From NCBI GenBank assembly GCA_964187785.1, contig OZ076409.1, positions 12,650,001-12,710,000 of the forward strand: 60,000 nucleotides of DNA, written 5' to 3'. Positions 35,979-37,049 of the stretch are shown here, in pieces. The DNA comes from Amphiscolops sp. MND2022. Its lineage: Eukaryota. Within the stretch, counting starts at the first letter, position 1. Every line of letters starts with the position of its first letter. The notes under the pieces are model-generated. The model was given only the letters and a program-made list of their open reading frames with translations. It was not told where the DNA came from and ran no database searches. Both the position numbers and the translations under genes were made by a program.

Positions 35979-37049
35979 TTCCAGTTTCCAGCAGCTCCAG
36001 TTCCAGCGCCCTTCCTCCTCAGCAGCGGCCGCGTGCAGCCTCTGGCAGAGGGATATGTAGTCCGCTTGTTGGACAAAGACGATTATCGTATCAAGAGAAT
36101 AAACCCCGCTACACAAACTGTTGTGCTACAAAAAATTAATTCAAGTAATCGTTGCTTTGCTCGACCAGCTACGGAAATCTGGCTTCCTCCTCCAAGCAGT
36201 AACAGCCTGAGCGTGGAAGTGGACTGTCCTCCCCCTCCAGCAATCTGTGATTGCTCGCCAGTACCCCCTAAATTAATAGTGGACACCTGCGATGTAGCAG
36301 TGGATGCGTCCCTCGACGCTGACGACAGCATGGAACTCTTAGTATCAAAGTTTTCTTCGGTTGGCGAACTCAATAAGGGTTTTGAAGAAGCCCGTGCAGC
36401 AGCTAATAAGGCTCGCATCGAGTGTGAGCATACGTTCGACCTCCTTTGCGAGGAAATGACTCTTCGGAAGGCAAAGGAAAAGGAAATTCATGAAGCAAAA
36501 ATCGAGCTCGCTGGTTTACAAACCAACATTGCTTCTCAAGTCGTCGCCCTCGCCGAAAAAGACAGTGAAATAGCCGCCCTGAAGACGCGCCTCAGTGCCC
36601 TCAGCGACGAAAACAGCTCTTTGCTGCAACACAGTCTCCAGCAAAGCGAAGAACTCTCTAACCTTAAACTAGCCGCCAACAGGGTTTCAGATGCCCATCT
36701 AACTACAGAAATGCTAATCCATCAGCTGTCAACATATGCAATTGACCTGGATTTCAATGATGACAACCTGTTCTTCGATGTTCTCGGACTGACACCAACC
36801 TCAGATGTTACCAAGATAAACATTCATGCTCGGCATCTCCTGCGCCTGGTCCACCCCGACAAGAATCCATCCATTCCAGCAGATGTCGCCCAACTTATTC
36901 CTTGCCTCAAAGAAGCTAAGAGCATCCTCACCGATCCCCAATTGAATAAAATATATCAATGTTGCGGTATGTCAGGTGTCCGCCGGGCTCGTCGCAAACT
37001 ACGGACTTGCATGGATTGCGACTCCCATATGTCAGACTGGTTCGAATAA
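35979..37049 (+). CDS. Accessory protein: coiled coil + LxCxE + C-terminal DnaJ (J) domain
   Basis: Open frame of about 356 codons ending 40 bp before the 3' LTR; FFDVLGLTPTSD..KINIHARHLLRLVHPDKNP....LKEAKSILTDP.LNKIY..CG matches the J-domain pattern with intact HPD (36852-36860). True start uncertain. Confidence 0.8.
   Translation, partial: FQFPAAPVPAPFLLSSGRVQPLAEGYVVRLLDKDDYRIKRINPATQTVVLQKINSSNRCFARPATEIWLPPPSSNSLSVEVDCPPPPAICDCSPVPPKLIVDTCDVAVDASLDADDSMELLVSKFSSVGELNKGFEEARAAANKARIECEHTFDLLCEEMTLRKAKEKEIHEAKIELAGLQTNIASQVVALAEKDSEIAALKTRLSALSDENSSLLQHSLQQSEELSNLKLAANRVSDAHLTTEMLIHQLSTYAIDLDFNDDNLFFDVLGLTPTSDVTKINIHARHLLRLVHPDKNPSIPADVAQLIPCLKEAKSILTDPQLNKIYQCCGMSGVRRARRKLRTCMDCDSHMSDWFE

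Follow-up and report, generated by a model that had tools for sequence, protein, structure and literature searches.

A conserved J-domain gene downstream of env in an errantivirus-like LTR element of Amphiscolops sp.

Retroviruses and long terminal repeat (LTR) elements depend on the Hsp70 and Hsp40 chaperones of their hosts, and to our knowledge no retrovirus or LTR element has been reported to encode a J protein of its own. The present analysis concerns a stretch of 60,000 nucleotides from Amphiscolops sp. MND2022 (assembly GCA_964187785.1, contig OZ076409.1, positions 12,650,001 to 12,710,000 of the forward strand; hereafter the window), in which an open reading frame (ORF) at 35979-37049 on the plus strand, termed ORF4, lies inside a 12.7-kb Ty3/gypsy-type LTR element. 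ORF4 is a real gene of this element, is under purifying selection and encodes a J domain with the His-Pro-Asp (HPD) motif. We consider it likely that ORF4 constitutes a conserved accessory gene of an env-carrying, errantivirus-like Ty3/gypsy clade and that its product is a class-C J protein, most likely functioning as an Hsp70 adaptor, which suggests that a group of elements brings its own chaperone adaptor. An initial annotation of the sequence knew of no standalone J gene in an LTR element, and full-text literature searches likewise found no report of a J domain encoded by such an element.

Among described elements, the errantiviruses gypsy, ZAM and Springer share with the window element the LTRs, a tRNA primer-binding site, gag, a pol gene for protease, reverse transcriptase (RT), RNase H and integrase, the occurrence in multiple copies, and an F-type env expressed from spliced RNA, both the F type and the splicing being predictions for the window element. 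In Springer the leader is devoid of AUG, and a distance of 43 nt separates the LTR from the splice donor 3' of it (PMC13097621). Env-carrying Ty3/gypsy elements across metazoans were surveyed by Chary and Hayashi (eLife 2026, PMC13524379), and the terms DnaJ, J-domain, chaperone, macro and splic- do not occur in the main text of that survey. The window element differs from errantiviruses by a fourth gene after env, a macrodomain in pol, conserved leader ORFs and a start codon that is predicted to be built at a splice junction.

A viral J domain with an HPD motif that works through host Hsc70 is found in the large and small T antigens of polyomaviruses, and small t carries cysteine clusters after its J domain. 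ORF4 resembles these proteins in that its J domain is encoded by the element, retains HPD and is followed by cysteines as in small t. On the other hand, the J domain is N-terminal in T antigens and C-terminal in ORF4, polyomaviruses are DNA viruses, and no homology is detectable outside the J domain. Moreover, the LxCxE feature of polyomaviruses has no counterpart in ORF4, since the candidate LLCEE (residues 155-159) lies within a long helix, is restricted to the window subfamily and is not conserved. Another set of related cases is provided by complex retroviruses, where tax and rex of HTLV and tat and rev of HIV are located downstream of env and expressed from more fully spliced mRNAs, and where HTLV takes the initiation codon from an exon further upstream. 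ORF4 shares the position downstream of env and, by prediction, the spliced expression, but there is no homology, the codon itself would be split (AU|G), and the product is co-chaperone-like.

In cells, class-C J proteins of the auxilin/GAK type act as adaptors that bring Hsc70 to a protein lattice. Their arrangement of a C-terminal J domain preceded by a targeting region resembles that of ORF4 by analogy only, as auxilin matches ORF4 neither in sequence nor in fold outside the J domain. The cysteine-string protein DNAJC5 provides the best match of an ORF4 profile in the PDB (2n04/2ctw, E ~2e-9) and also features cysteines after its J domain; however, the J domain of ORF4 is only 26% identical to the DNAJC5-like J domain of the same genome (L058), and ORF4 lacks a cysteine string and has another architecture. 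J domains within polyproteins were described for 11 RNA-virus families by authors who suggest a role in folding or virion assembly and also recall the polyomavirus J domains (bioRxiv 10.1101/2022.02.15.480533). These cases are alike in that viruses acquired a J domain independently, whereas ORF4 is not part of a polyprotein but a separate accessory gene, predicted to be spliced, of a reverse-transcribing element. Finally, the plant J protein SILENZIO has been mentioned in connection with transposon silencing (PMC8616336).

The element that harbors ORF4 is young. Its 5' LTR (25096-25808, 713 bp) and 3' LTR (37090-37801) are 99.58% identical, with 2 mismatches and 1 gap across 713 positions, and are flanked by GTAT target-site duplications at 25092-25095 and 37802-37805. 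Directly 3' of the 5' LTR lies the primer-binding site TGGTGACAAGGGTGGGAT (25810-25827), which is kept just after the LTR in all five lineages of the family (A-E; in lineage B at its full LTR end), and the polypurine tract GGGGGAGGGCAG (37078-37089) directly precedes the 3' LTR. Between the env-type ORF and the 3' LTR, the ORF4 frame is open from 35928 to 37049, ends with the stop codon TAA (37047-37049) and contains a sole in-frame ATG at 36330. Position 35979 is the first whole codon past a predicted splice acceptor, and the coding exon comprises 356 residues after the predicted junction Met. The intact ORF that had been annotated inside the LTRs and downstream of env is thereby borne out.

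In an AlphaFold2 model computed from a 19-sequence alignment (mean pLDDT 78.4), the protein starts with an SH3-like small beta-barrel (residues 1-73, 35979-36197; six strands within residues 10-63, pLDDT 81-88), which reaches a pLDDT of 77.5 when modelled on its own. A Pro/Cys-rich linker, predicted to be disordered (residues 74-113, 36198-36317; pLDDT <50), connects it to a long helix or coiled coil (residues 114-251, 36318-36731; helices 114-124 and 128-251, pLDDT up to 97), which is followed by the J domain (residues 264-338, 36768-36992) with HPD at residues 292-294 (36852-36860). The C-terminal tail, [C/H]C-G-x2-G-x10-C-x2-C (36960-37019), may form a zinc site with C328, C329, C344 and C347. 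With regard to domain content, the initial annotation was right about the long coiled coil, the C-terminal J domain with HPD and the subsequent CC and CxxC, and missed the conserved N-terminal barrel.

The identity of the J domain is supported by several lines of evidence. Pfam DnaJ (PF00226) matches ORF4 with 35.4 bits (E 1.2e-8; curated cut-off 27.8), and a scan of the genome for the family gave 38.7 bits at C1:12686771-12686956. A 19-member ORF4 profile retrieved 37 distinct PDB sequences at E <= 0.01, all of which are J-domain proteins by molecule name, with DNAJC5 at the top (1.8e-9). The model comprises J-domain helices at 264-268, 277-291, 301-318 and 320-338, and most of the top rows in a Foldseek search with the full model are J-domain chains (E 2e-3 to 8e-2, probability 0.98-1.00), aligned over 60-69 columns with an rmsd of 1.2-2.1 and target TM-scores up to 0.86; two further top rows are small beta-barrels aligned to the N-terminal domain. 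In the language-model protein Atlas, ORF4 has no look-alike cluster (best score 0.78). HPD is kept in 46 of 52 family sequences, and without exception in the sampled copies of four of the five lineages. Of the 50 sequences whose tail is complete, 41 fit the form Y-x-[C/H]-C-G-x2-G-x8-12-C-x2-C, and three of the nine that do not (L036, P0015, P0039) were missed owing to a mis-anchored regular expression. Its first ligand position is C in 41 and H in 9 sequences, across lineages, and such an alternation fits a putative metal site. Since the J domain is C-terminal, not N-terminal as in class A and B Hsp40, and Pfam detects no other DnaJ-type domain, the ORF4 protein belongs to class C by architecture.

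Conservation within the 1.07-Gb assembly is extensive. A six-frame search with ORF4 yielded 139 matches, and 12 of the 13 full-length matches with at least 78% identity have no stop. The order pol, env, ORF4 was found in all ten diverged loci that were fetched, where identity to the window amounts to 54-93% for pol, 52-94% for env and 27-80% for ORF4, the latter being 27-49% in the eight copies outside the lineage of the window. The whole ORF4 architecture is kept in five lineages whose pol is ~54-65% identical, and the protein can be aligned down to 30% identity. Lineages A, B, D and E are represented by full elements with gag and LTRs that are 98.8-100% alike, and lineage C by an internally deleted copy without gag and with LTRs 98.1% alike. 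Homologues accompanied by env and LTRs, for which the initial annotation had proposed to search in related genomes, exist in every lineage examined within the genome itself. Homology extends over the entire open frame and also takes in the 117 residues that precede the ATG at 36330 (Met118). By the Nei-Gojobori method, dN/dS amounts to 0.12-0.29, for comparisons between subfamilies, in eight of the nine pairs with unsaturated dS; the ninth pair (L036/L037, 0.84) consists of two close, decaying copies. Values for the J domain are 0.06-0.10 (dS 1.0-2.5), and those for the N-terminal domain, in so far as they could be measured, are 0.03-0.10. The same position in diverged loci together with low dN/dS implies that ORF4 is not a one-off capture. 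Sixteen host-type J domains were sampled among the top matches when the genome was scanned with Pfam, and their identity to the J domain of ORF4 is only 20-36%, in line with the initial view that ORF4 is no fragment of a host DnaJ. Two copies (L008, L010) are nearly identical to the window ORF4 as far as the coiled coil (dS 0-0.07) but reach a dS of 1.6 in the J domain, which indicates that ORF4 is mosaic and that subfamilies have exchanged the J module by recombination within the gene. Out of 1.84 billion, the ORF4 profile matched 144 cluster representatives at E <= 1e-10, of which 44 reach E <= 1e-30; the representatives inspected share the ORF4 architecture, and these relatives are ENA, Logan or NCBI entries.

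How translation of ORF4 might start can be approached by comparing the lineages. There is no in-frame ATG upstream of the conserved N-terminal domain in any of the five, and Met118 is not conserved, being I or L in other lineages. A predicted splice acceptor, composed of a pyrimidine tract and cag|G (35958-35978), precedes the coding exon, and its G would furnish the third base of an AUG; all five lineages have YAG|G in phase at this site (35977|35978), as do 10 of 11 aligned copies. The corresponding donor is predicted within the LTR, where AAT|GTAAGT (25595-25602, cleaved at 25596|25597) would leave an exon ending in AU. Lineages A, B, D and E have this motif once per LTR, ~195-240 nt before its 3' end, and lineage C features AT|GTTAGT at a similar place; 6 of 11 copies carry the same donor motif 500-940 nt 3' of the stop codon of ORF4. 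As AATAAA is located at LTR position 270, the donor would fall in U5 and hence be present once per transcript. In unspliced RNA the predicted donor site reads AUG-UAA, and joining ...AAAU to G... yields an AUG in frame with ORF4 (M-FQFPAAP...). ORF4 is thus probably exon 2 of a subgenomic mRNA in which splicing itself brings the parts of the AUG together. Contrary to the lack of introns noted in the initial annotation, the gene is probably spliced and not a simple intronless ORF. A donor in the leader at 26097 has the best position weight matrix score (10.5 bits) but was discarded, as it offers no in-frame ATG.

It is rather unlikely, in our estimate, that the coding sequence is correct and this expression model wrong, i.e. 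that ORF4 is reached from another donor, is transcribed from a promoter within the repeat spacer and begun at a non-AUG codon, or is made by re-initiation at Met118, which would give a 239-residue protein. A good donor, GAG|GTATGT, does exist at 33432|33433 just after the env ATG and would allow a tax/rex-like route, yet it is in phase 1 and out of frame with the acceptor, and it is not conserved, its GT being absent in L040 (lineage A) and in lineage B. Similarly, the in-frame ATG at 36330 is available in the window copy, but the 117 residues that precede the non-conserved Met118 are themselves conserved as protein. Furthermore, an AT|GT donor and an AG|G acceptor co-occur in all five lineages, which speaks for the junction-built AUG.

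According to the favored interpretation of ORF4 as an accessory Hsp70 adaptor, its mRNA would be singly spliced and subgenomic, with the AUG created by joining the donor in the 5' LTR to the ORF4 acceptor, and env of the window element would use the same donor and the same junction-AUG device. The resulting protein would be soluble, its N-terminal barrel presumably binding a target and its ~125-residue helix presumably forming a coiled coil. The J domain would dock on host Hsp70/Hsc70 and trigger ATP hydrolysis, upon which the chaperone would clamp or remodel whatever the N-terminal domain holds. Candidate clients are a component of the element, in the course of capsid or ribonucleoprotein assembly or disassembly, or a complex of the host; particle assembly, uncoating and piRNA loading, as put forward in the initial annotation, are candidate purposes. 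We infer splicing, Hsp70 recruitment, dimerisation, zinc binding and the client alike from sequence and models. By its composition of barrel, coiled coil and J domain, ORF4 would moreover represent a compact natural adaptor for client searches.

Several observations weigh against this interpretation. HPD is lost in 6 of 52 family sequences, most likely in decayed copies. With the full model as query, Foldseek found no PDB match at E <= 0.001, and the J fold reached only ~2e-3 because the query was the entire 356-residue model. The N-terminal domain has no significant match by sequence in Pfam (11 members, best E 0.025) or the PDB (best E 0.2), and in structure it scores about equally well with KOW, Tudor, chromo and SH3 domains (Z 7.2-6.4, the best for KOW and Tudor), all of these values lying in the background range of the tool, so that the model points to an SH3-like small barrel without singling out one of these families. 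As to expression, the exon structure of ORF4 is derived from comparative sequence, the donor has T rather than the usual G at position -1, and env of lineages B and D has an in-frame Met of its own and no YAG|G acceptor in the respective phase, hence the junction-AUG device is not universal for env. A Tudor aromatic cage in the N-terminal domain was considered and found unsupported, the only invariant aromatic residues being Y36 and F60.

The gene might also be real and selected while its J domain is repurposed, so that ORF4 acts via barrel, coiled coil and cysteine tail as a structural or RNA-binding regulator, with stimulation of Hsp70 absent or incidental. The domain is indeed divergent, considering its 35 bits in Pfam and its low identity to host J domains; the usual YD..G motif of J domains is replaced by Y-x-[C/H]-C-G; an arginine-rich stretch follows the J domain in lineages A and B; and conserved hairpin repeats are present in the predicted ORF4 intron. 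The latter belong to a tandem repeat in the spacer between env and ORF4 (35556-35836, plus strand; 79 bp x 3.5 copies, fold z-score -5.4) with ACACG-UUUC-CGUGU and CUAGUUGC-N8-GCAACUAG hairpins. The UUUC-loop hairpin, with compensatory changes in the stem, occurs in the spacers of lineages A (5 copies), C (2), D (4) and E (1) and was not found in that of lineage B. Nevertheless, HPD, for which we know of no role besides contact with Hsp70, is retained across lineages that are only 30% identical, and pairs of large dS show a low dN/dS in the J domain, which renders a repurposed J domain improbable.

A Rev/Rex-like post-transcriptional regulator that acts through a chaperone is a further possibility, and a very doubtful one. 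In this scenario, the ORF4 product would arise only from spliced mRNA, and its dimeric KOW/SH3-like barrels would bind the UUUC-loop hairpins of its own intron, which would hence be present only in genomic and env RNAs. Recruitment of Hsp70 by the J domain to nuclear retention or splicing complexes would then allow intron-containing RNA to be exported or packaged. If this were true, ORF4 would be the first RNA regulator of a retroelement to recruit a chaperone. The remaining notion of a neutral passenger, that is a host DnaJ fragment captured once or a chance ORF, is hardly credible, for although LTR elements sometimes carry captured host fragments and the gene sits in the variable region between env and LTR, it occupies the same place in ten of ten diverged loci and five lineages, shows the low dN/dS and open frames reported above, and exceeds 36% identity to none of the 16 sampled host J domains.

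The adjacent env gene (33146-35492, plus strand) encodes a putative F-type protein with a signal-like N-terminus, an RPRR sequence that leads into a hydrophobic stretch, and a membrane span at the C-terminus. Pfam Baculo_F matches two of four env homologues (best E 7e-6), the window copy not being among them, and F-type fusion proteins are the neighbors of env in the language-model protein Atlas, which is to be taken as a lead only; by sequence, neither the single env nor a profile of four matches the PDB. Env is devoid of a conserved ATG of its own and appears to share with ORF4 the LTR donor that contributes to the AUG. Before the non-conserved ATG, the env frame is likewise open and conserved, and this part encodes a hydrophobic, signal-like start. 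An acceptor, tttttcag|G, is predicted at 33145|33146, and the predicted junction 25596^33146 gives an AUG in frame with env (M-ISYFPNSQHFWFLFLF...), again with a signal-like start. In lineages A, C and E this acceptor is of the same kind and phase as that of ORF4.

Further upstream on the plus strand, gag (26938-28158, 406 aa) matches Pfam Retrotrans_gag (E 9.2e-8), and a zinc-knuckle match (zf-CCHC) is weak, with 17.9 bits under the cut-off of 20.8. Pol (28125-33065) comprises, by Pfam matches, an N-terminal aspartyl protease, RT (RVT_1, 2.7e-33), RNase H (RT_RNaseH, 5.7e-34) and integrase (Integrase_H2C2, 2.8e-21; rve, 7.6e-10), i.e. the domain order of Ty3/gypsy. Between RNase H and integrase, pol contains a TARG1/OARD1-like macrodomain (30615-31154), which matches PDB entries 2eee/4j5q over ~139 residues (E 1.5e-34), scores 24.5 bits with Pfam Macro and is kept in lineages B-E at 44-57% identity. 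An ADP-ribose-removing domain within the polymerase of a retroelement may deserve as much attention as ORF4. Ahead of gag, the leader of 1.1 kb harbors two ORFs on the plus strand that are conserved at the protein level: one of 89 aa (26218-26487) with a membrane-like stretch, and one of 132 aa (26498-26896). Both are conserved in lineage B (48% and 53%, respectively), and conservation of the second extends to lineage D (E 1.5e-14) and, weakly, to lineage E (E 0.008). Neither matches Pfam, and a scan of the window with Rfam at gathering scores gave no match. Taken with the macrodomain and the predicted splice-built AUG, the leader ORFs imply that errantivirus-like elements of the invertebrate type can match vertebrate complex retroviruses in complexity.

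J-domain ORFs are not unique to the family of the window within this genome, as a second LTR-element family carries two of them in the same position. At four loci (L041-L044; G000 C3:17352000-17361990, C5:54008000-54017990, C4:53672000-53681990 and C1:57201000-57210990), an integrase is followed by an env of the Monjiviricetes type (class III-like; Pfam Monjiviricetes_fusion, E 9.8e-19) and two tandem J-domain ORFs of ~234 and ~251 residues. Each starts at its own ATG and leads from a small region at the N-terminus through a coiled-coil-like middle to a J domain at the C-terminus (61 and 49 bits). All 4 aligned copies of the first ORF retain HPD, as does 1 of the 2 aligned copies of the second. 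Paired J-domain matches ~1.1 kb apart appear in the Pfam scan of the genome, and many of those elsewhere look like further copies. In a profile comparison with ORF4, only the J domain aligns (probability 93.7%), and the J domains of the second family are up to 45% identical to host-type J domains versus 23-30% to ORF4, which, for a domain this short, hints that the second family acquired its J genes separately. Its dN/dS of 0.52-1.07 was obtained from four close copies that are too alike to inform on selection (dS 0.04-0.06). The occurrence of J genes in two env-bearing families suggests that env-bearing retroelements repeatedly resort to chaperone capture, much as polyomaviruses and some RNA viruses do.

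In addition, ORF4-like J-domain fragments form tandem arrays in the genome at L045 (G000 C12:54714000-54723990) and at C8:55925388-55932844, the former with a period of ~1.28 kb and 31-43% identity to the C-terminus of ORF4.

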